Shown here piece by piece: positions 3,912 through 60,219 of a stretch of DNA of 64,000 nucleotides (its first letter is position 1; each line of letters starts with the position of its first letter). The stretch comes from Octopus vulgaris. Lineage: Eukaryota. The position numbers were made by a program, and so were the translations under genes. The notes under the pieces are model-generated. The model was given only the letters and a program-made list of their open reading frames with translations, was not told the origin of the DNA and did not search any database. The stretch is taken from the NCBI GenBank assembly GCA_951406725.2, contig OX597818.1, positions 125,984,001-126,048,000 on the forward strand, given 5' to 3'.

Positions 3912-4134
3912 TTTTAAGCAGCAGAAAATTCAACAAAATCTGTTACTCTGAGTTTCTCGTTGCCGTTCATCAGACAGTTTTTTCTAGCAAAAACTGTCTG
4001 ATGAACGGCAACGAGAAACTCAGAGTAACAGATTTTGTTGAATTTTCTGCTGCTTAAAATAAAGCATATTACTCTACCACTGGTATTTGAGTACTCTTTT
4101 TTTCCACCTTGTTTCACATTTATGTGTTTACTCC

Positions 4135-11765: not shown

Positions 11766-11837
11766 GATCATTACAGATACAGCGTAAAGAATTATTGATT
11801 TAATAAATTGATAAATAGTAGTTTTCGGTATGGAAAA

Positions 11838-12250
11838 GAATCATATTCGGTAAAAACTTATACAAAAAGTTTTTTTTTTATATATAATTATAACAATAAT
11901 TAAGCGTTTAGCAACAAGTTGCTTCACCACATACCGAAAATTTTGAAATAGCAGCCAAAAGAATATTATGTTGACAAAGGAAATGAATTTTTATAATTCT
12001 AATCCATAAACGCCTCCATAATTAATCGAAGACTGTTTAATTTCATTCTGTTTCTTCTTTTTACCTATGTGAGTTACAACTATTGTTATCTGTGGAGACA
12101 TATTTTGTAGAAAAAAGAAATAGCGGTCTTTTGGCTGCTATTTGTAAATTTTCGGTATGTGGTGAAGCAACTTGTTGCTAAACGCTTAATTATTGTTATA
12201 ATTATATATATAAAAAACTTTAAATTTTTTTATCGAATATGATTCTTTGT
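11838..12250. repeat. Imperfect inverted repeat, ~125-bp arms
   Basis: 11838-11963 is the reverse complement of ~12128-12250 and includes AAATAGCAGCCAAAA. Confidence 0.8.
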
Positions 12251-12439
12251 TGCTAAACCCTCATATATATATATATATATATAAAATAAATATAAGAGAG
12301 TGGTCACTATATTAATCACTCTAGCACCAGTTAATCCAAAAGGTTTCAACCACGAAGATACATGTTTCCCATGAAAGCCAGTACGACTGTTAGCTCACAC
12401 GGACAGGGCAAATAAAAAATAACAAAAATACAGATTATT

Positions 12440-12515
12440 TTGGGACAATTGTTTCGCTATTAATGAATTAAATGTAACATTACTTACAATAATCCATTTG
12501 TAGCTCTTCAGCCAA
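12440..12515 (-). ncRNA. Type I hammerhead ribozyme, 533-bp unit
   Basis: Reverse complement of the motif at 14733-14808. Confidence 0.88.
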
Positions 12516-12972
12516 GACTATCTGGATGAAATCCACTCAATCACACGCCAGATTTTACCATAACGATAAATACGCGTGCGGTTCAATTGATTACATCGGA
12601 CGTTATAATTCAAATGCCCCAACCAACAGCGCGCCAAACTCACACGGAAAACAAATACAGCATTTAGAAATAAATGCAGCATAATTATAATTAATTAATA
12701 AGGGTGAGAGAATTAGATACTAATTTAATAGTATATTTATTCCACACCAAGTGGCCTAGTGCTACGAGAAACCTGGATTATTATAATATTTTATAACATA
12801 TTATAATATTTTCACAAAATAAATATAAGAGAGTGGTCACTATATTAATCACTCTAGCACCAGTTAATCCAAAAGGTTTCAACCACGAAGATACATGTTT
12901 CCCATGAAAGCCAGTACGACTGTTAGCTCACACGGACAGGGCAAATAAAAAATAACAAAAATACAGATTATT

Positions 12973-13048
12973 TTGGGACAATTGTTTCGCTATTAATGAA
13001 TTAAATGTAACATTACTTACAATAATCCATTTGTAGCTCTTCAGCCAA
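12973..13048 (-). ncRNA. Type I hammerhead ribozyme, 533-bp unit
   Basis: Same motif, +533. Confidence 0.88.
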
Positions 13049-13505
13049 GACTATCTGGATGAAATCCACTCAATCACACGCCAGATTTTACCATAACGAT
13101 AAATACGCGTGCGGTTCAATTGATTACATCGGACGTTATAATTCAAATGCCCCAACCAACAGCGCGCCAAACTCACACGGAAAACAAATACAGCATTTAG
13201 AAATAAATGCAGCATAATTATAATTAATTAATAAGGGTGAGAGAATTAGATACTAATTTAATAGTATATTTATTCCACACCAAGTGGCCTAGTGCTACGA
13301 GAAACCTGGATTATTATAATATTTTATAACATATTATAATATTTTCACAAAATAAATATAAGAGAGTGGTCACTATATTAATCACTCTAGCACCAGTTAA
13401 TCCAAAAGGTTTCAACCACGAAGATACATGTTTCCCATGAAAGCCAGTACGACTGTTAGCTCACACGGACAGGGCAAATAAAAAATAACAAAAATACAGA
13501 TTATT

Positions 13506-13581
13506 TTGGGACAATTGTTTCGCTATTAATGAATTAAATGTAACATTACTTACAATAATCCATTTGTAGCTCTTCAGCCAA
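13506..13581 (-). ncRNA. Type I hammerhead ribozyme, 533-bp unit
   Basis: Same motif, +533. Confidence 0.88.
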
Positions 13582-14038
13582 GACTATCTGGATGAAATCC
13601 ACTCAATCACACGCCAGATTTTACCATAACGATAAATACGCGTGCGGTTCAATTGATTACATCGGACGTTATAATTCAAATGCCCCAACCAACAGCGCGC
13701 CAAACTCACACGGAAAACAAATACAGCATTTAGAAATAAATGTAGCATAATTATAATTAATTAATAAGGGTGAGAGAATTAGATACTAATTTAATAGTAT
13801 ATTTATTCCACACCAAGTGGCCTAGTGCTACGAGAAACCTGGATTATTATAATATTTTATAACATATTATAATATTTTCACAAAATAAATATAAGAGAGT
13901 GGTCACTATATTAATCACTCTAGCACCAGTTAATCCAAAAGGTTTCAACCACGAAGATACATGTTTCCCATGAAAGCCAGTACGACTGTTAGCTCACACG
14001 GACAGGGCAAATAAAAAATAACAAAAATACAGATTATT

Positions 14039-14114
14039 TTGGGACAATTGTTTCGCTATTAATGAATTAAATGTAACATTACTTACAATAATCCATTTGT
14101 AGCTCTTCAGCCAA
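14039..14114 (-). ncRNA. Type I hammerhead ribozyme, 533-bp unit
   Basis: Same motif, +533. Confidence 0.88.
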
Positions 14115-14732
14115 GACTATCTGGATGAAATCCACTCAATCACACGCCAGATTTTACCATAACGATAAATACGCGTGCGGTTCAATTGATTACATCGGAC
14201 GTTATAATTCAAATGCCCCAACCAACAGCGCGCCAAACTCACACGGAAAACAAATACAGCATTTAGAAATAAATGCAGCATAATTATAATTAATTAATAA
14301 GGGTGAGAGAATTAGATACTAATTTAATAGTATATTTATTCCACACCAAGTGGCCTAGTGCTACGAGAAACCTGGATTATTATAATATTTTATAACATAT
14401 TATAATATTTTCACAAAATAAATATAAGAGAGTGGTCACTATATTAATCACTCTAGCACCAGTTAATCCAAAAGGTTTCAACCACGAAGATACATGTTTC
14501 CCATGAAAGCCAGTACGACTGTTAGCTCACACGGACAGGGCAAATAAAAAATAACAAAAATACAGATTATTTATTTATTTCTAAATGCTGTATTTGTTTT
14601 CCGTGTGAGTTTGGCGCGCTGTTGGTTGGGGCATTTGAATTATAACGTCCGATGTAATCAATTGAACCGCACGCGTATTTATCGTTATGGTAAAATCTGG
14701 CGTGTGATTGAGTGGATTTCATCCAGATAGTC

Positions 14733-14808
14733 TTGGCTGAAGAGCTACAAATGGATTATTGTAAGTAATGTTACATTTAATTCATTAATAGCGAAACAAT
14801 TGTCCCAA
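14733..14808 (+). ncRNA. Type I hammerhead ribozyme, 533-bp unit
   Basis: TTGG-CTGAAGA-GCTA...TAGC-GAAA-CAATTG-TC^CCAA. Stem I extends via CAGAT/ATCTG; stem II extends via AATGGATTA/TAATTCATT and TGTAA/TTACA; palindromic stem III ACAATTGT; GUC cleavage after 14804. Confidence 0.9.
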
Positions 14809-15265
14809 AATAATCTGTATTTTTGTTATTTTTTATTTGCCCTGTCCGTGTGAGCTAACAGTCGTACTGGCTTTCATGGGAAACATGTATCTTCGTGGTT
14901 GAAACCTTTTGGATTAACTGGTGCTAGAGTGATTAATATAGTGACCACTCTCTTATATTTATTTTGTGAAAATATTATAATATGTTATAAAATATTATAA
15001 TAATCCAGGTTTCTCGTAGCACTAGGCCACTTGGTGTGGAATAAATATACTATTAAATTAGTATCTAATTCTCTCACCCTTATTAATTAATTATAATTAT
15101 GCTGCATTTATTTCTAAATGCTGTATTTGTTTTCCGTGTGAGTTTGGCGCGCTGTTGGTTGGGGCATTTGAATTATAACGTCCGATGTAATCAATTGAAC
15201 CGCACGCGTATTTATCGTTATGGTAAAATCTGGCGTGTGATTGAGTGGATTTCATCCAGATAGTC

Positions 15266-15341
15266 TTGGCTGAAGAGCTACAAATGGATTATTGTAAGTA
15301 ATGTTACATTTAATTCATTAATAGCGAAACAATTGTCCCAA
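15266..15341 (+). ncRNA. Type I hammerhead ribozyme, 533-bp unit
   Basis: Same motif, +533. Confidence 0.88.
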
Positions 15342-15799
15342 AATAATCTGTATTTTTGTTATTTTTTATTTGCCCTGTCCGTGTGAGCTAACAGTCGTAC
15401 TGGCTTTCATGGGAAACATGTATTTTTCGTGGTTGAAACCTTTTGGATTAACTGGTGCTAGAGTGATTAATATAGTGACCACTCTCTTATATTTATTTTG
15501 TGAAAATATTATAATATGTTATAAAATATTATAATAATCCAGGTTTCTCGTAGCACTAGGCCACTTGGTGTGGAATAAATATACTATTAAATTAGTATCT
15601 AATTCTCTCACCCTTATTAATTAATTATAATTATGCTGCATTTATTTCTAAATGCTGTATTTGTTTTCCGTGTGAGTTTGGCGCGCTGTTGGTTGGGGCA
15701 TTTGAATTATAACGTCCGATGTAATCAATTGAACCGCACGCGTATTTATCGTTATGGTAAAATCTGGCGTGTGATTGAGTGGATTTCATCCAGATAGTC

Positions 15800-15875
15800 T
15801 TGGCTGAAGAGCTACAAATGGATTATTGTAAGTAATGTTACATTTAATTCATTAATAGCGAAACAATTGTCCCAA
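15800..15875 (+). ncRNA. Type I hammerhead ribozyme, 533-bp unit
   Basis: Same motif, +534 (1-nt insertion near 15424). Confidence 0.88.
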
Positions 15876-16152
15876 AATAATCTGTATTTTTGTTATTTTT
15901 TATTTGCCCTGTCCGTGTGAGCTAACAGTCGTACTGGCTTTCATGGGAAACATGTATGGTTGAAACCTTTTGGATTAACTGGTGCTAGAGTGATTAATAT
16001 AGTGACCACTCTCTTATATTTATTTTGTGAAAATATTATAATATGTTATAAAATATTATAATAATCCAGGTTTCTCGTAGCACTAGGCCACTTGGTGTGG
16101 AATAAATATACTATTAAATTAGTATCTAATTCTCTCACCCTTATTAATTAAT

Positions 16153-16248
<96 letters not shown>

Positions 16249-22180: not shown

Positions 22181-22513
22181 TGGTAAAAACGGTAAGATAA
22201 CAAAAGAAAGAAAGAGACCTCAATATTATGTAAATAGAGGAAATTTATCTGAAAAAATAATATGTGACAATTATTCGGTAGCCAAGATAAAACTCTGAGT
22301 TTCGGATGCCGAGGTGGAAATCCACAACACCATCTCTTCGGTTATCTGGCCATCTGAAAAACGCTATGAAAAAAGACCGTTATACAAAGGTCTTTTTCAT
22401 AGCGTTTTTCAGATGGCCAGATAACCAAGAGATGGTGTGGTGGATTTCCACCTCGGCATCCGAAACTCAGACTTTTATCTTGGCTACCGAATAATTGTCA
22501 CATATTATTTTAC

Positions 22514-34508: not shown

Positions 34509-36783
34509 AAACAACAACAACAACAAAAACAACAACAACAACAACAAGAACAAGAAGAAGAAGAAGAAGAAGAAGAAGAAGAAGAACAACAACAACAACA
34601 ACAACACGAACAACAACAAGAACAACAACAACAAGAACAAGAACAACAAGAACAACAAGAACAACAACAAGAATTAACAACTAGAACAACAACAACAACA
34701 AGAACAACAACAACAACAAGAACAAGAACAACAACAAGAACAAGAACAACAAGAACAAGAACAAGAGCAAGAAGAAGAAGAAGAACAACAACAACAACAA
34801 CAACACGAACAACAACAAGAACAACAACAACAAGAACAAGAACAACAAGAACAACAAGAACAACAACAAGAATTAACAACTAGAACAAGAACAACAACAA
34901 GAACAGCAAGACCAACAAGAACAACAACAAAAACAACAACAACAGCAACAACAAGAACAACAACAACAACAAGAAAAAGAATAATAATAATAATAATAAC
35001 AACAACAACAACAACAACAACAAAAAACAGTAAGAACAACAACAAGAACAACAACAAGAACAACAACAAGAACAACGACAACAACATTAACTACAAGAAC
35101 AACAACAACAAGAACAAAACAAGAACAAGAACAAGAACAAGAAGAACAACAACAACAAGAACAACAACAACAACCACCAGAACAAGAACAACGACAACAA
35201 CATTAACTACAAGAACAACAAGAACAACAAGAACAACAACAACAACAAGAACAACAACAACAACAAGAACAAGAACAACAACAAAACAACAACAACAACA
35301 ATAAGAAGAACAACAAGAACAAGAACAACAACAGAAACAACAAGAACAAGAACAACAACAACAACAAAAACAAGAACAGCAAGAACAAGAACAAGAACAA
35401 CAACAAAAAGGACAACAACAACAACAAGAACAACAACAAGAACAGCAACAAGAACAACAAGAACAACAAGAACAACAAGAACAACAAGAACAACAACAAG
35501 AATTAACAACTAGAACAAGAACAACAACAAGAACAGCAAGACCAACAAGAACAACAACAAAAACAACAAGAACAAGAACAACAACAACAACAAAAACAAG
35601 AACAGCAAGAACAAGAACAAGAACAACAACAAAAAGGACAACAACAACAACAAGAACAACAACAAGAACAACAACAAGAACAACAACAACAACAAGAACA
35701 ACAAGAACAACAACAACAACAACAAGAACAACAACAAGAACAACAAGAACAACACCAAGAACAACAAGAACAAGAACAACATCAACAACAACAACAACAA
35801 CAAAAACAACAACAGGAAGAACAAGAAGAAGAAGAAGAAGAACAACAACAACAATAAGAACAAGAACAACAACAGCAACAACAACAAGAGCAACAACAAG
35901 AACAAGAAGAAGAAGAAGAACAAGAACAAGTACAAGAACAACAACAACAACAACAAGAACAAGAATAACAACAAGAACAAGAACTACAAGAACAAGAACA
36001 AGGACAAGAACAACAAGAACAAGAACAACAACAACAAGAACAAGAACAACAACAAAAACAACAACAACAACAAAAAGAACAACAACTACAACAACAACAA
36101 GAACTAAAACAACAAGAACAAGAACAAGAACAAGAAGAACAACAACAACAAAAACAACAACAACAAGAACAACAAGAACAACAACAGGAACCACAAGAAC
36201 AACAACAACAACAACAACACCAACAAGAATAACAAGAACAACAAGAAGAACAGCAACAACAACAACAACATAAAGAACAACAACAACAACAACAACAAGA
36301 CCAACAAGAACAACAAAAACAACAACAGCAACAGTAACAAGAACAAGAACAACTACAAGAACAACAACAACAATAAGAGCAAGAACATGAACAAGAAGAA
36401 GAACAACAACAACAAGAACAAGAACAACAACAACAACAACAACAAGTACAAGAACAACAAGAACAACAACAAGAACAACAAGAACAACAAGAATAAGAAG
36501 TAGAACAACAACAAGAACAAAGACAAGAAGAAGAAGAAGAAGAAGAAGAAGAAGAAGAAGAAGAAGAAGAAAAAGAAGAAGAAAAAGAAGAAGAAGAAGA
36601 GGGAGAAGAGGAAGCAGAAGAAGAAGAAGAAGAAAAAGAAGAAGAAGAAGAAGAAGAAGAAAAAAGAAGAAGAAGAAGAAGAAGGAGAAGGAGAAGGAGA
36701 AGAAGAAGAAGAAGATGAAGATGAAGAAGAAGAGAAAGTAGTGGAAGAAGAAGAAGAAGAAGAAGAAGAGAAAGTAGAGGAAG

Positions 36784-36815
<32 letters not shown>

Positions 36816-36853
36816 GAGAAAGTAGAGGAAGAAGAATGAGAAGAAGAAGAAGA
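34509..36853 (+). repeat. 2.3-kb (CAA/GAA)n compound low-complexity repeat
   Basis: Nearly T-free triplet tract grading from CAA-rich to GAA-rich, with a recurring GAATTAACAACTAGAACAA marker. Confidence 0.95.
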
Positions 36854-38760
36854 ATTTTATTTTTCAGTATTAATCATGACATTAGATAGGTAGTCAGAGG
36901 CATATTATTTGAAAGTATACAGGATGTTCGCGGTTGGAGTGCTTTTGATGATAGATCAACTTAATGAGAGCAATATAGCAACAACATCGCTACAACGTAA
37001 TAAATATACAACTGCACATCACATTATGCCATACGTTTGAATTATCATTCACGACTTCCACCAACATCACCCAACAGATCATCATATCAAAGCTCGAAAT
37101 TATATGAAATACAGTTTGTCTTGTTAATTTTTTTTATATATAAACTGAAATAGCAGTAAGTAGGATAAGCAAATAATTTAGTTATTATTAGAATAATGTT
37201 CTACATATTTCAAAATTCTAATTTTCTATTTGTACGTAGGTAAATCCAACACTAGAAACCGAAATATCTCATCTCTCTATGCCCTAAGCACAAGGGGTTT
37301 TTTTTTATGATTAGTCCGGGTCTGGATAGTGAGATGGCGAAATACATCAAGCCAAAAGGTATAGAGATAACCATTAAGGCAGAGGTTTCGTCATTGATTC
37401 TTATGCTGGTGGTGGTGGTGGTGATGGGTGAGGCTGTCTCACAAACAGTATAGGCCCCCAAAGTAAGGCAATGCACTGGGGGATCTTATAAGCACACCCA
37501 TAGCATACCTAAATTATAATTAGGCCTCTTGATCTGCCAGGCTCCAGGACAACTTTCCAGTTTGAGTCCACATCTTGACTGCTTTGGTGGTGAGAATGGA
37601 GAGTGAGGGTCGAAAAGCATGTTATGGTGGTGTATAGAGTGTTGTGCATGAGTTGTTATTGTAATTCAGAATTGTAAGGTACTGTAGAGTCTCTAGTGGT
37701 GTGGTACTCAGTGAATGCATTACGTGCTACCAGTTGGTTTATTGGCGTTGAGAATGATCCGCTGGAATACTTGGGCATTACAAGACTCACGTCGTGTTCT
37801 GTTTTGGTCAGGAGTTGGGATATGAGCTCAGAATGCACAGAGGCGGAATATATTATATAAGATATTCTCTTCGATACCCTAATATTACACAACTCCACGA
37901 CTTTGACTGGCACTTCATTTATCAAGCTTAAAGAAATGAGTGACAAAGTTGACCGAGGCAGAATTTGAACTCAGACTCATATAACCGGAACAAATAAAAC
38001 AAGGCTGTAACGACTCTGCCAAATCAACAAAATGGAACTGATAAGTACGAGAATTAATTAATAGATTAATTTAATCATTTATTTATTTATTTATGCTATT
38101 TTAGCGCTTGGTCAACCCTGTTTGAATAGATCTATCATCCAACGGACCTATATTCCAACAGTGATCATCTCGACATTTTCGTGAGGTAGAGTTGGATACG
38201 GAGAATATAAAACTATATTATCTAATGTATCCTTCCACTTTTTAAAACTATATAGTGGGATTTGGGGTAGGTTAAGCTGCCATTTCTAGCAGACCGAACG
38301 ACATGTATCTACAAGTAAACTGCATATACATGAGGTGCACATGATGCATTTACATAAACCGGAGCACAATGAAAGATCTAGAACGGTTCGTGATAAAGGT
38401 AATTATTTACCCACGGGTACTTCCCTTTGTCTATAACACAAGTTGTATACCCATGTCAGCGAGTTCACCTACCTTTCCTTATCCCTGTTCTGACCCGGTA
38501 ATATGATGTGGTGTTGAATTGCTGCTGTTACGCTCATACACCTTATCACTTCCCTCTAAATAAATTTACATCCCTCAAATTTACGTCCTATTTCATTTGT
38601 CACGACCATCATTATGCACTAACTCGTCACTTGACCTGCTAGAACTAACAGCCAAATTTCTCTAAAATTACACTCCACAGTCTTAGAACAGAACAAAAAA
38701 AATTAAGTAATGTATTGAATAATGTGATGTTAGCTACACGATATCTAAAAAAACAAGTAA

Positions 38761-42780: not shown

Positions 42781-42848
42781 TATATATACACACACACAAT
42801 TATATATAAAAAAATAGAATTTAGATTCATTTGAATTAGGTACTTAAA

Positions 42849-43630
42849 TTGAGGCATCTTGTTTGGACGATATTATTTGCACACTTCAACAATATTAAGT
42901 GAGTATCAAACTCTACATAGAATTCTTTTCCACCCGACATTCATGCAGTGTATGCAGATGGCACGAGCGAACTTAGTGAATAAATCCGCTTTTGTTTGTT
43001 CACTCATGTACTTTATATAAAGATACTTTCCAAATATTTCCAAAGTGCAGATTCCACAGTAGGTGAGTAAAATATTGAGGCATCTTGTTTGGACGATATT
43101 ATTTGCACACTTCAACAATATTAAGTGAGTATCAAACTCTACATAGAATTCTTTTCCACCCGACATTCATGCAGTGTATGCAGATGGCACGAGCGAACTT
43201 AGTGAATAAATCCGCTTTTGTTTGTTCACTCATGTACTTTATATAAAGATACTTTCCAAATATTTCCAAAGTGCAGATTCCACAGTAGGTGAGTAAAATA
43301 TAAATGACTCGCAAAAATCTATAAGTGTAAATTCATTACGGCGTTTCGAGTGACTCCGTTAATTTATCAATGAAAGCATTACATCATTACAAAGAAAACC
43401 GTTCTCATCAGATGAACCGCATAGACCTCAAGCATAATAGACAAGTTAGATATTTAAACATATTCATATCATCAATAGAGAACAAATATTTACAATGATT
43501 TCGCTCTCTAAATTTTTGGGGCTATCTATTGATGATATAAATACGTTTAAATATGTAACATGTCCTTTATGTTTGCGGTCTATGTGGTTCATCTGATGAG
43601 AACGGTTTTCTTTGTAATGATGTAATGATT
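42849..43630. mobile_element. PLE-type insertion: ~227-bp tandem duplication, an HHR and an inverted repeat
   Basis: TTGAGGCATCTTG... occurs at 42849 and 43075; 43377-43490 is inverted at ~43515-43630. Confidence 0.65.
43332..43416 (-). ncRNA. Type I hammerhead ribozyme
   Basis: Minus strand TTCAT-CTGATGA-GA...TC-GAAA-C(GCC)G-TA^ATGAA; 5-bp stem I, canonical core, short stem II base. Confidence 0.7.
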
Positions 43631-44528: not shown

Positions 44529-44699
<171 letters not shown>

Positions 44700-44795
44700 A
44701 TAAAACGGTAAGATAACAAAAGAAAGAAAGGGACCTCAATATTATGTAAATAGAGGAAATTTATCTATACAATATGTTACATTACTCGGTAGTCA

Positions 44796-44858
44796 AGATA
44801 AAACTCTGAGTTTCAGATGCCGAAGTGGAAATCCACAACACCATCTCTTCGGTTATCT
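44796..44858 (-). ncRNA. Hammerhead ribozyme, inverted copy in the PLE 3' region
   Basis: Reverse complement of 47712-47774. Confidence 0.78.
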
Positions 44859-45721
44859 GGCTATTTGAAAACGTTATGAAAAAATACCGTTAAAAATGAA
44901 GGGAAATTACTCTGTTATAACTCTGCTTGCCTGCGTACTTATACATCGCTCGCATTTTTCGTCATAAAAATTATATAAAAATACATAAAAATATATAAAA
45001 ATATATAAAAATATATAAAATCTTCTTGGGACATAACACAGAAAGCATGTTCTATCCGTTTTCTTTAGGGGACCAAAAACGTAACAGAAATTTAGTCACA
45101 TGTGGGCATGATCCGAAAAGCTCTGTCCTTGTATTTAGACATGTGGTAGGGTCTAAGCTGCTTTTCCAGATAAGCCATCTCTCCATGTCGCATAAACCGC
45201 ACCTTCCGCTGCCGTTAGTGTAGGGCTTACATCTGGCCAAAATCTTCCATTGTATGTTATAATCGACACCTTTATCTCTTAAAGACCAAATATGATTGGA
45301 TAATTGTGTCGCTTTTCTTTTGTTCCAGTGCCTAAAGCTCAAAGTGTGGTTATTGAACCTGGCCTTGAAATTACCCTCTGTCAGGCCCACGTATTTCTTC
45401 GTCGAAACGGTGTCTTTAGTGGTTATAGAGTTTACGGTAGCTTCATATATGATGGTCTTGGACATGCAAGCTCCATTTAGCGGGCACAATTCTTTATTCC
45501 TGCATGAACAGCTATTTTCTTCTTGTGTTTTTTGTATGTTATGATTGATTATGTTTTTAAAATTGGTAGTTGAACTAAAACTAATTTTTAAATTGTGTCT
45601 ATTGAAGAGTTTCCTATAAGCATGGTTAACTGGAAAATGTCTATCTATCAGTGCTAGGAAATATTTACCTATATTGAAGGCCACCTCGGGTGAGTAAGGG
45701 GGCGTAAAACCGAAAAAAGCA

Positions 45722-47518
45722 CTTTTTTCGGATAAAACCAAGAACTTATACCTGGTAGATAACAGCAAATACACACAACTCTTACACAACAGCATCACTA
45801 ATAATTATACTAAGGCTAGGGCACAGACATATAACGAAATTAATAAAGAAGCTAGCGTCATCGCCGCTAAACTTAAATTAGATAAAAAAATAGAAACCCT
45901 CCCCCAAAAAGAGGCCTTTATTACTATTAAAGATCACAAAGAAAACTTCCTTTCCAACCCTAAATGTAGGCTTATCAACCCAGCCAAGTCAGAACTAGGG
46001 ATTATTAGCAAAGAAATTTTAGATAAAATAAATACGAAAATTAAGACCGATACTAGGCTAGTGCAATGGTCCAATAGTATAGAAGTCGTAGACTGGTTTA
46101 AAGCTATTAAGAATAAGAAAAAAGCGAGGTTTACACAATTCGATATTGTTGATTTTTATGCCTCTATCTCTAAAGAACTGCTAGATAAAGCCCTAATCTT
46201 CGCTAGTGACTTCATAGAAATTAGTACCAATGATAAGGATATAATCTTCCATGCTAGAAAGACATTACTTTTCAGTGAGAATGCAAAGTGGGTAAAAAAC
46301 ACCGACACGGAGGGCGCTTTCGATGTGAGCATGGGTTCATATGATGGGGCAGGCATCTGTGATCTAATTGGACTCTTTCTCCTAGATACCTTCGGTAAGA
46401 CATTCCCTAACGTACATTTCGCCATCTACAAAGATGATGCCCTCGCCTTAACAGCTAATACAAATGGACCAGCACAAGATCGTTTTAGGAAGGATATTAT
46501 CCAGTTAATGAAACACTTCGGACTTAGTATAACTATAGACACTAACCTGACGGTTGTCAATTTCTTAGACGTTTCCTTAGATCTTAATAATAATATTTAT
46601 AAGCCTTATAGGAAACCCAATGATAGACTAAGTTATATTAATGTAGGTTCATGCCATCCCCCTATAGTATCCAAAAATTTAGTTAAAAATATTAGTAAGA
46701 GGATTTCTAGCCTCTCATCTAATGAGGACATCTTCAATAGCGTTGCCCCAGTTTATAATAAAGCTTTAAAAGATAGTGGTTTTAGCGAAAAAATAAAATA
46801 TACACCTATCACCAGCCCAACAGTAAGGAAAAGGAATAATAGAAATAGGAAGGTCATCTGGTTTACGCCCCCTTACTCACCCGAGGTGGCCTTCAATATA
46901 GGTAAATATTTCCTAGCACTGATAGATAGACATTTTCCAGTTAACCATGCTTATAGGAAACTCTTCAATAGACACAATTTAAAAATTAGTTTTAGTTCAA
47001 CTACCAATTTTAAAAACATAATCAATCATAACATACAAAAAACACAAGAAGAAAATAGCTGTTCATGCAGGAATAAAGAATTGTGCCCGCTAAATGGAGC
47101 TTGCATGTCCAAGACCATCATATATGAAGCTACCGTAAACTCTATAACCACTAAAGACACCGTTTCGACGAAGAAATACGTGGGCCTGACAGAGGGTAAT
47201 TTCAAGGCCAGGTTCAATAACCACACTTTGAGCTTTAGGCACTGGAACAAAAGAAAAGCGACACAATTATCCAATCATATTTGGTCTTTAAGAGATAAAG
47301 GTGTCGATTATAACATACAATGGAAGATTTTGGCCAGATGTAAGCCCTACACTAACGGCAGCGGAAGGTGCGGTTTATGCGACATGGAGAGATGGCTTAT
47401 CTGGAAAAGCAGCTTAGACCCTACCACATGTCTAAATACAAGGACAGAGCTTTTCGGATCATGCCCACATGTGACTAAATTTCTGTTACGTTTTTGGTCC
47501 CCTAAAGAAAACGGATAG
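45722..47518 (+). CDS. PLE reverse transcriptase plus C-terminal GIY-YIG endonuclease (5'-truncated open frame, no true start)
   Basis: The frame is open upstream of the tracked 46061 start: SDKT, AFITIKDHK, CRLINPAKS, FDIVDFY, SMGS, YKDD, FLDV, CSC-x5-C-x5-C, IIY...YVG, RFNNH, CGLC. Confidence 0.9.
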   Translation, partial: LFSDKTKNLYLVDNSKYTQLLHNSITNNYTKARAQTYNEINKEASVIAAKLKLDKKIETLPQKEAFITIKDHKENFLSNPKCRLINPAKSELGIISKEILDKINTKIKTDTRLVQWSNSIEVVDWFKAIKNKKKARFTQFDIVDFYASISKELLDKALIFASDFIEISTNDKDIIFHARKTLLFSENAKWVKNTDTEGAFDVSMGSYDGAGICDLIGLFLLDTFGKTFPNVHFAIYKDDALALTANTNGPAQDRFRKDIIQLMKHFGLSITIDTNLTVVNFLDVSLDLNNNIYKPYRKPNDRLSYINVGSCHPPIVSKNLVKNISKRISSLSSNEDIFNSVAPVYNKALKDSGFSEKIKYTPITSPTVRKRNNRNRKVIWFTPPYSPEVAFNIGKYFLALIDRHFPVNHAYRKLFNRHNLKISFSSTTNFKNIINHNIQKTQEENSCSCRNKELCPLNGACMSKTIIYEATVNSITTKDTVSTKKYVGLTEGNFKARFNNHTLSFRHWNKRKATQLSNHIWSLRDKGVDYNIQWKILARCKPYTNGSGRCGLCDMERWLIWKSSLDPTTCLNTRTELFGSCPHVTKFLLRFWSPKENG

Positions 47519-47711
47519 AACATGCTTTCTGTGTTATGTCCCAAGAAGATTTTATATATTTTTATATATTTTTATATATTTTTATGTATTTTTATATAAT
47601 TTTTATGACGAAAAATGCGAGCGATGTATAAGTACGCAGGCAAGCAGAGTTATAACAGAGTAATTTCCCTTCATTTTTAACGGTATTTTTTCATAACGTT
47701 TTCAAATAGCC

Positions 47712-47774
47712 AGATAACCGAAGAGATGGTGTTGTGGATTTCCACTTCGGCATCTGAAACTCAGAGTTTTATCT
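47712..47774 (+). ncRNA. Type I hammerhead ribozyme in the PLE 3' terminal region (CCGAAGA core variant)
   Basis: AGATAA-CCGAAGA-GATG...CATC-t-GAAA-CTC(A)GAG-TT^TTATCT. Confidence 0.78.
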
Positions 47775-47796
47775 TGACTACCGAGTAATGTAACAT

Positions 47797-47847
<51 letters not shown>

Positions 47848-58283: not shown

Positions 58284-58642
58284 CATACATACATACATAC
58301 ATACATACATACATACATACATACAAGCCTTGAAGCGGCCCCTCTGTCTGTCTCTTCTTTGTAGGGTCTTCCTTGTTGCTGTTACATATTGTGAAATTTT
58401 AAAATCACATCAAAATCTCCGAGCTTCTGAAATGTTAATAAGTTTTAAGGAATAACGTCATGTGAAACAGCAAAACAGATATGTAATTAATTTTAAAAAG
58501 AAAAAGGCTCTCAAGGAAGAGTTTTTGCGAAAAATTGAACAAATCTGTCTGGGAAGATATTCCATGGTCTGATATGGAATAAACTAAAATTTATATAAGG
58601 CATTCTAAAGTAAAATTTACCCGGCAACGACGGGTTGTTCAG

Positions 58643-58677
<35 letters not shown>

Positions 58678-58681
58678 ATAT

Positions 58682-58713
<32 letters not shown>

Positions 58714-58900
58714 TATATAAAAGGGCTTAGTAAAATAAATTACTTTGCCGCATACTGAACTCATTAGAAATAGCAGCCAAAAAACTTTTTTAAAGCTATT
58801 TCTAATACTTAAAGAAAATCTCTCTCATATATAGCGTTTGCTTAATTCAACTCACAAAAGTTTGGGGGTAAGGACATTAAAAAATCAAATGCTAAGGTTA

Positions 58901-58956
58901 TTTGAGAACGTACGTTTCAAGATTAGTCAAAACAACACTTCTATCTTCAGCTCAAA
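58901..58956 (-). ncRNA. Type I hammerhead ribozyme, 545-bp unit
   Basis: Reverse complement of 59643-59698. Confidence 0.82.
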
Positions 58957-59642
58957 AACTCCTTGGTTTGGATTTGGAAACACTGAAAGTAAGAACATAC
59001 CCTTTCGAAGATCCGCTCGTAACTAACAGTGCCAACAAACCCAAATAAGCAAGCGAAGAATTTCTGTTCTCCCCTTTCCACCAGCGTGGGTTAAAATCAT
59101 CAAACGCTATGCTTATTTCGGTAAAATCCGAAGCATTAACGTACGTTCTCAAATAACCTTAGCATTTGATTTTTTAATGTCCTTACCCCCAAACTTTTGT
59201 GAGTTGAATTAAGCAAACGCTATATATGAGAGAGATTTTCTTTAAGTATTAGAAATAGCTTTAAAAAAGTTTTTTGGCTGCTATTTCTAATGAGTTCAGT
59301 ATGCGGCAAAGTAATTTATTTTACTAAGCCCTTTTATATAATGTAATAATTTGAATTCGCCTTAAATGGTCCCTTTGCATACTGAACACTTGGTGAAATT
59401 GATTAATAATTAATTAATTTTACCCTCAATTGTTGAAATTATAATTAATCTCCCTCTAATTAATGCTTCGGATTTTACCGAAATAAGCATAGCGTTTGAT
59501 GATTTTAACCCACGCTGGTGGAAAGGGGAGAACAGAAATTCTTCGCTTGCTTATTTGGGTTTGTTGGCACTGTTAGTTACGAGCGGATCTTCGAAAGGGT
59601 ATGTTCTTACTTTCAGTGTTTCCAAATCCAAACCAAGGAGTT

Positions 59643-59698
59643 TTTGAGCTGAAGATAGAAGTGTTGTTTTGACTAATCTTGAAACGTACGTTCTCAAA
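59643..59698 (+). ncRNA. Type I hammerhead ribozyme, 545-bp unit
   Basis: TTTGAG-CTGAAGA-t-AGA...TCT-t-GAAA-CGTACG-TT^CTCAAA; 6-bp stem I, palindromic stem III. Confidence 0.82.
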
Positions 59699-59980
59699 TA
59701 ACCTTAGCCTTTGATTTTTTAATGTCCTTACCCCCAAACTTTTGTGAGTTGAATTAAGCAAACGCTATATATGAGAGAGATTTTCTTTAAGTATTAGAAA
59801 TAGCTTTAAAAAAGTTTTTTGGCTGCTATTTCTAATGAGTTCAGTATGCGGCAAAGTAATTTATTTTACTAAGCCCTTTTATATAATGTAATAATTTGAA
59901 TTCGCCTTAAATGGTCCCTTTGCATACTGAACACTTGGTGAAATTGATTAATAATTAATTAATTTTACCCTCAATTGTTG

Positions 59981-60043
<63 letters not shown>

Positions 60044-60219
60044 GTTGTATACTCTCAATCTAACAAGAACGTGACAGTAGGGGGTACACCACCGCTGTAT
60101 AGCCCTAGGAAGCATCGAACGCCTCCTGATAGCTTTGACATATTTTTTCCCTGTGTCCTTATATATATATATATATATATATTATATACAGATACATATA
60201 TACTACTTAAATATACTTA

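Follow-up and report, generated by a model that had tools for sequence, protein, structure and literature searches.

A young non-coding hammerhead retrozyme family in Octopus vulgaris with paired 3' ends, likely copied in trans by a Penelope-like enzyme

Results

A two-armed insertion in a (TA)n microsatellite

The window, a stretch of 64,000 nucleotides of the Octopus vulgaris genome (contig OX597818.1, positions 125,984,001 to 126,048,000), carries at 58709-59988 one insertion, in two arms, of a hammerhead repeat family that is young and non-coding. On the left it is bordered by (TG)n and then (TA)n of the target microsatellite (58646-58708) and on the right by (TA)n (59989-60038); the left flank is itself repetitive, and no target-site duplication is readable within the (TA)n flanks. 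Unit positions are numbered from the predicted hammerhead cut. The left arm (58709-59139, minus strand) is 431 bp or 0.79 unit long, is 5'-truncated at unit position 313 and has its 3' end at site A (unit ~198). The right arm (59138-59988, plus strand) is 851 bp or 1.56 units long, is 5'-truncated at unit position 536 and has its 3' end at site B (unit 296). The period of the right arm is 545 bp, with one difference in the 306 bases at which its copies overlap, and the left arm, read from 59139 to 58709, is identical to 59460-59890 at 429 of 431 positions. The arms meet at an inversion junction (59138-59139), where a 2-nt AA microhomology is common to both 5' ends.

Complete type I hammerhead motifs are present in the right arm (59635-59705, plus strand, predicted cut 59692/59693) and in the left arm (58894-58964, minus strand, predicted cut between 58907 and 58906; coordinates mirrored from 59635-59705 via the arm alignment). 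The right arm additionally begins with a hammerhead 3' half (59138-59160, plus strand) comprising the stem III palindrome, GUU and the 3' strand of stem I, with no core upstream, which places the start of the arm 10 nt upstream of the predicted cut (59147/59148). The predicted cut-to-cut monomer is 545 nt long (59148-59692, plus strand; 33% GC) and contains an end module (59295-59443) in which both site A and site B lie, a second copy of which is at 59840-59988. The locus thus holds two complete hammerheads on opposite strands and one 3' half, has no two consecutive complete hammerheads and, at 0.79 + 1.56 units, is not itself a multimer.

The preliminary description of this stretch had reported a 545-bp unit with one hammerhead, a head-to-head inversion, (TA)n flanks and near-identical copies, all of which agree with the arm alignments and motif matches; the AA microhomology and the right-arm start about 10 nt before the cut were also seen, at 59138-59139. 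Its term 'HHR multimer' applies to the family, in which arrays reach 8.3 units, and not to this locus. The start of the arm inside stem III, which it had singled out, does not recur: out of 69 arm 5' ends only six are found 12 nt or less from the cut, where 3.2 are expected (P ~0.10), and the position of the junction looks incidental.

Elsewhere in the window there is a perfect two-copy 226-bp tandem (42848-43301) and a 2.3-kb mixed (AAC)n/(AAG)n array (34510-36854).

The hammerhead motif

A type I hammerhead descriptor, composed with the motif already known and tolerating a mismatch at the stem II base, matches at 59649 (plus strand) and 58950 (minus strand) and in none of 3,000 dinucleotide-shuffled units. 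The motif consists of the core CUGAAGA, stem III ACGUACGU and a GUU triplet. Stem I is formed of a proximal and a distal 4-bp helix with an internal loop between them, stem II begins with a U.U pair, and stem III is 2 bp capped by a palindromic tetraloop. The core variant CUGAUGA is the commoner one in the family (62/121 and 80/97 motif copies in two samples), and in a set of 218 motif copies there is hardly any change in the stems, loop 2 is variable, and positions 7 and 17 are each U or A. In related families, stem I pairs are altered on both sides. A search with Rfam gave no hammerhead at the gathering score across the window and none at E<=10 in 58600-60100.

The active fold of the monomer is predicted to lie ~5.8 kcal/mol above the ensemble, and a duplex of the stem III palindrome is predicted at -12.2 kcal/mol. 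Hammerheads which work as dimers via a palindromic helix III have been described (PMC4209133), and the axolotl HHR_Amex2, which likewise has U.U at the base of helix II and a 2-bp helix III with a tetraloop, shows weak cleavage as a monomer and stronger cleavage when dimeric (PMC7229834). The predicted hammerhead activity of the 545-nt unit is likely; for the retrozyme dimers of Xenopus, eight of nine were uncut in vitro (10.64898/2026.07.22.740005).

The core of a ~555-bp sister family has U3-A8 in place of C3-G8 in seven of 11 descriptor matches and U3.G8 in the other four, and was seen in L182, L183, L184, L185, L193 and L195 near 1468. This is possibly a compensatory variant of the catalytic core, the 3-8 pair being backed by a rescue mutant (PMC11167929).

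Copy number, arrays and coding content

The genome (2.8 Gb, 227 contigs) is rich in (TA)n. A 20-mer from the hammerhead 3' half has 1,596 exact copies in it, compared with none for the control, and as the first 100 of these sit in 47 loci, the number of loci is estimated at ~750. Analysed here were the 39 best-matching loci and the window, together with 40 of the 47 loci just mentioned, chosen in their order on contig C1 (three of the 47 overlapped the best-match set). The units fall into two subfamilies, of 543-546 bp and 557-564 bp.

Arms that exceed one unit run on into the next, and the longest array has 8.3 units among the 39 best-matching loci and ~6 units among the 40 contig C1 loci. 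With 95 cut-to-cut units in 53 arms across the 80 loci, consecutive complete type I motifs are a trait of the family. Very young multi-unit arms are common, in copies that are 98-99% identical. The monomer is without a long ORF, the longest non-microsatellite stop-to-stop frame in the element being 77 aa, and it folds better than its shuffles (z ~ -5.9). No LTR organisation was found in the 80 loci.

Could the unit be only the pLTR, or 3' end, of an autonomous Penelope-like element (PLE), truncated and inverted? Its anatomy is identical to that of an autonomous element in the same window (44698-47811), and the pLTRs of PLEs do carry type I hammerheads (PMC4209133). When the window PLE protein was used as a single tblastn query, an ORF with RT and GIY-YIG joined to the repeat was found in 0 of 79 loci; the protein matched three of them, each time more than 1 kb off the array. 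A single query might fail to detect remote PLE clades, though the evidence from periodic read-through is independent of this test. Because arms continue into the next unit and no arm in the 79 loci enters a Penelope ORF, the unit is not simply a pLTR, and with arrays of six to eight ORF-less units this explanation is most improbable and already largely refuted. The 545-bp family is best read as a non-autonomous non-LTR retrozyme and not as the terminal repeat of a PLE. The claim of a multimer-forming ribozyme-repeat family is borne out by copy number, tandem read-through and arrays alike: the survey for longer arrays succeeded, that for linkage to an RT ORF gave none in 79 loci with one protein query, and the first of the cases named as fatal to the claim, a PLE terminal repeat with no multimers beyond a partial tandem, fails on the arrays of 6-8 units.

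In the 8.3-unit array (L050:2726-7234) two variants recur every four units, which may be a higher-order repeat, the trace of a tetrameric template or an assembly artefact.

Arrays might also have arisen after insertion, if monomers or short copies were inserted via a PLE and then grew by local DNA duplication. The period-4 pattern of L050 resembles block duplication, local growth also yields homogeneous arrays, and local amplification by unequal crossover is discussed by Li et al. 2026 (10.64898/2026.07.22.740005). However, most arms, even those of 1-2 units, extend past the unit boundary, in circular permutation with respect to their 3' ends, so the template was tandem or circular beforehand, and multi-unit arms are common in the very young, 98-99% identical copies. 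Growth by local duplication is accordingly quite an improbable origin for the arrays.

Two fixed 3' ends and scattered 5' ends

The 3' ends of arms fall at unit ~193-205 (site A) or at 296 (site B), followed by (TA)n; site B lies 98 nt beyond site A, and in the right arm of the window copy the two are at ~59340-59350 and 59443 respectively. Hand-reading of two-armed insertions showed one arm ending at each site in 24 of 25 cases in the best-match set and 28 of 29 in the contig C1 set (52/54 together), and both exceptions have one interrupted arm. Pairs of two A ends or two B ends were never seen. Stricter automatic typing, which overlooks ends whose TA tract is short, yielded A+B in 22/40 and 23/40 loci and, again, zero A+A or B+B. 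The best-match set is skewed to B-ended arms by the phase of the query, and the contig C1 set is free of this skew.

The 5' ends, on the other hand, are scattered, with a mild overall non-uniformity (Rayleigh p ~0.013, in a sample with duplicated loci and length bias). At 25 arm junctions there were overlaps of 1-6 nt (17), short inserts (6), one blunt joint and one 18-nt overlap. The insertions therefore bear the PLE signature of an inverted 5'-truncated arm, two 3' end sites (the tail) and a microsatellite target. The insertion anatomy that the preliminary description saw in common between the 545-bp family and a 533-bp family in the same window was found, and extends to the autonomous PLE, including the two-site end rule.

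A probable single template per insertion

At eight polymorphic sites of the 545 subfamily, differences were found in 3 of 162 comparisons across arms and 6 of 963 within an arm, as against 5,921 of 15,091 (39%) between loci; two of the three cross-arm differences come from L043, whose arms are separate insertions. Over whole units, substitutions average 1.0 within arms and 6.5 between loci in the 545 subfamily, and 1.4 and 26 in the ~560-bp subfamily. Because both arms carry one haplotype, it is likely that one RNA templates both.

Rare variants at positions that at least two copies cover (L043 and L056 excluded, arm ends trimmed) were fixed at the locus in 19 cases, 11 of them across both arms, occurred in one copy in 53 and in some copies in five. 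The 19 fixed variants fit a monomer template that was read repeatedly. Of the five partial variants, two are present in both arms and two have period 4, and these are what oligomeric templates, conversion or a later duplication would leave. A circular template is likely, and only likely, since fixed variants would also result from the copying of a linear source array with uniform units, and polishing of the assembly could exaggerate the similarity of units in an array. Contigs from four of 24 sequencing runs (type guessed) contain the unit with its end linked to its start, as a circle or a tandem array would alike; they reveal neither ends nor strand and hence count neither way.

The same family and the same PLE enzyme could instead have used an uncut linear or oligomeric RNA read through from a tandem locus, with the hammerhead weak or needed only now and then. 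This would suit L047, where each arm has a variant in its last unit but one, L041, where the variant is offset by one unit, and the period-2 and period-4 patterns of L039 and L050. The weak predicted monomer fold and the absence of a significant pile-up of 5' ends at the cut point the same way, and uncut RNA is the dominant substrate of the Anolis PLE (PMC11167929). The copying of linear arrays, however, only shortens them and should transmit differences from unit to unit, whereas 73 of the 80 within-arm variable sites are private to one locus and the ~560-bp subfamily has its 26 substitutions between loci set against 1.4 within arms. A linear template of this kind is possible, and we consider it unlikely.

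Probably related families and the end module

Around sites A and B, ~160 nt of the 545-bp unit can be aligned with the 533-bp unit at equal distance from the cut, with a score of 65 compared with 37.8 +/- 5.9 for shuffles, none of 200 of which reach it; the sequences are AT-rich, so this support is moderate. The two had been taken for independent RNAs, a view which this end module, common to both and in register, does not favour: it suggests that the families are probably related. The likeness to the 533-bp family is weaker than that to the ~555-bp sister family, which has the module at ~61%. The end-module hairpin is also found in ~525-bp relatives of the 533 family, and many copies of the 533 family also end at unit ~291.

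In the predicted structure, a helix (59295-59303/59378-59386) encloses site A and is followed by a hairpin (59392-59424) and then by site B. RNAalifold, applied to 14 copies from two families, likewise predicted a helix around site A and a hairpin ahead of site B. Two of the 28 module pairs change on both sides and several on one side; this apparent covariation represents two events from two lineages and is a hint rather than proof.

Several further copies were observed. A 533-bp hammerhead array occupies 12273-16158 of the window, with ~4 units on the minus and ~3 on the plus strand between (TA)n tracts; this family has a canonical stem II, a GUC site and 747 first-look candidates in the genome. 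Adjoining it is an old two-armed copy of the ~555-bp family (11771-12205), and at 2275-2398 a diverged (~79%) fragment of a 545-like unit ends at site A in (TA)n. At least eight more type I hammerhead families with a palindromic stem III happen to lie in the flanks of the loci, at L034 (which has a 525-bp tandem), L215, L068, L088, L095, L023, L186, L173, L123 and L138.

Autonomous Penelope-like elements in the window and genome

The element at 44698-47811 is a 5'-truncated, two-armed copy of an autonomous RT/GIY-YIG PLE with a 606-aa open frame, a CCGAAGA hammerhead and a ~70-nt tail. Its family, an active one, has 717-aa frames and at least 72 copies at >=99%, and in eight of nine fully visible pairs (30 loci) opposite arms end at two sites ~70 nt apart, matching the published PLE tail and two RT initiation sites (PMC8557442; PMC11167929). 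Another hammerhead of this family is at 22341 (minus strand). A second active PLE family, with 727-aa frames and ~150 scored copies, is represented by a short inverted pair of its terminal hammerhead region, the cores of which lie on opposite strands at 3973-3998. In both the 717-aa and the 727-aa protein the GIY-YIG domain is C-terminal and a cysteine-rich linker is present, a combination ascribed to Neptune and Nematis (PMC8557442); with Pfam, the window PLE protein gave a GIY-YIG match below threshold only (E 0.011).

As a source for the 545-bp family's partner, two active families and one old family were compared, from a genome with 38,584 first-look PLE candidates. The end module was not found in the 717-aa and 727-aa families by pairwise test or by eye, and a profile scan over the retrieved loci showed no match to it in these two or in the old, degraded family among the first and last rows listed. 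A 9-nt match between the window PLE tail and the 545 unit was dropped, being missing from most PLE copies. By analogy of the insertions, a PLE-like RT/GIY-YIG enzyme is likely to copy the 545 RNA in trans.

Discussion

A proposed cycle

We consider it fairly probable, taking the reading as a whole, that the 545-bp family is a young, non-coding non-LTR retrozyme, likely copied in trans by a PLE-like RT/GIY-YIG enzyme from a single, probably circular 545-nt RNA. Tandem copies would be transcribed, and we infer that their weak hammerheads would cleave in dimeric form, paired via the stem III palindrome, after which the monomer would be ligated into a circle. The PLE protein would then cut both strands of a (TA)n tract and prime the two DNA ends at different sites, A and B, in the structured module of the same RNA. 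Each cDNA would travel around the template for a random length, in effect by rolling-circle copying, and the two 5'-truncated cDNAs would be joined head to head by microhomology.

Against this cycle stand the lack of a module-bearing autonomous PLE among the families examined, the five partial variants, the weak monomer fold and the silence of Rfam, as well as the uncut Xenopus dimers (8/9; 10.64898/2026.07.22.740005) and, by analogy, the use of uncut RNA by the Anolis PLE (PMC11167929).

A broader idea is put forward tentatively, as rather unlikely to hold. The families of about 525, 533, 545, 555 and 560 nt may form a cephalopod-type clan of circular ribozyme RNAs, in which the conserved ~150-nt module would offer a Penelope RT dimer an origin with two sites, one subunit priming at A and the other at B of the same circle. 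The module's sequence would be independent of the resident autonomous PLEs, and it could act as a portable, structure-based cis-element writing any RNA circle into DNA as rolling-circle multimers.

Comparison with known systems

Literature searches on octopus, retrozymes, hammerheads and Penelope, which mostly did not extend to subscription journals or Repbase, found no publication on the 545-bp family. Like the metazoan non-LTR retrozymes (PMC7229834; 10.64898/2026.07.22.740005), it has a tandem unit that is non-coding, low in GC and equipped with a single type I hammerhead; its copies number in the hundreds to thousands, the monomer is well folded, and PLEs co-occur. The unit length of 545 nt compares with ~170-400 nt (PMC7229834) and 51-972 bp (10.64898/2026.07.22.740005). 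A point of difference is that most insertions of the family consist of two arms diverging within (TA)n, whose 3' ends are fixed and paired, an arrangement of which no description was found in the consulted parts of those two reports. Furthermore, 24 of 57 Xenopus families have a sequence match to a pLTR (10.64898/2026.07.22.740005), whereas none was found for the 545 family, whose cleavage and circles are predictions.

As in EN+ PLEs (PMC8557442; PMC11167929), insertions lie in (TA)n and include partial tandems and an inverted arm that is truncated at its 5' end, the 3' ends fall at two internal sites with a tail on just one of them, and the hammerhead is upstream of these ends. The family differs from EN+ PLEs in that the unit has no RT or endonuclease ORF and in the tail, which is 98 nt rather than 30-40 nt. 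The strict A+B pairing also contrasts with the in vitro results, in which start sites did not differ between strands (PMC11167929). Non-autonomous Chlamys PLEs such as MRC1 (PMC8557442) are likewise non-coding PLE dependants with multicopy head-to-tail insertions; these resemble their autonomous partner at the 3' end, whereas no such match was found for the 545 family in the PLE families examined, and the Chlamys clade is generally without canonical hammerheads (PMC8557442), whereas the 545 family has one.

As this class of element (PMC7229834; 10.64898/2026.07.22.740005), and likewise the tail and the inverted arm (PMC8557442; PMC11167929), have been published before, the gain is incremental. 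Mobilisation of animal retrozymes by PLEs has so far been argued from co-occurrence and pLTR similarity; here the insertions themselves show the PLE tail signature, a strict rule of one arm per site and one haplotype each. A small natural RNA and intact candidate enzymes coexist in one genome, and the origin of the inverted and tandem structures of PLEs, and the circle as a template, are thereby made testable in vitro.
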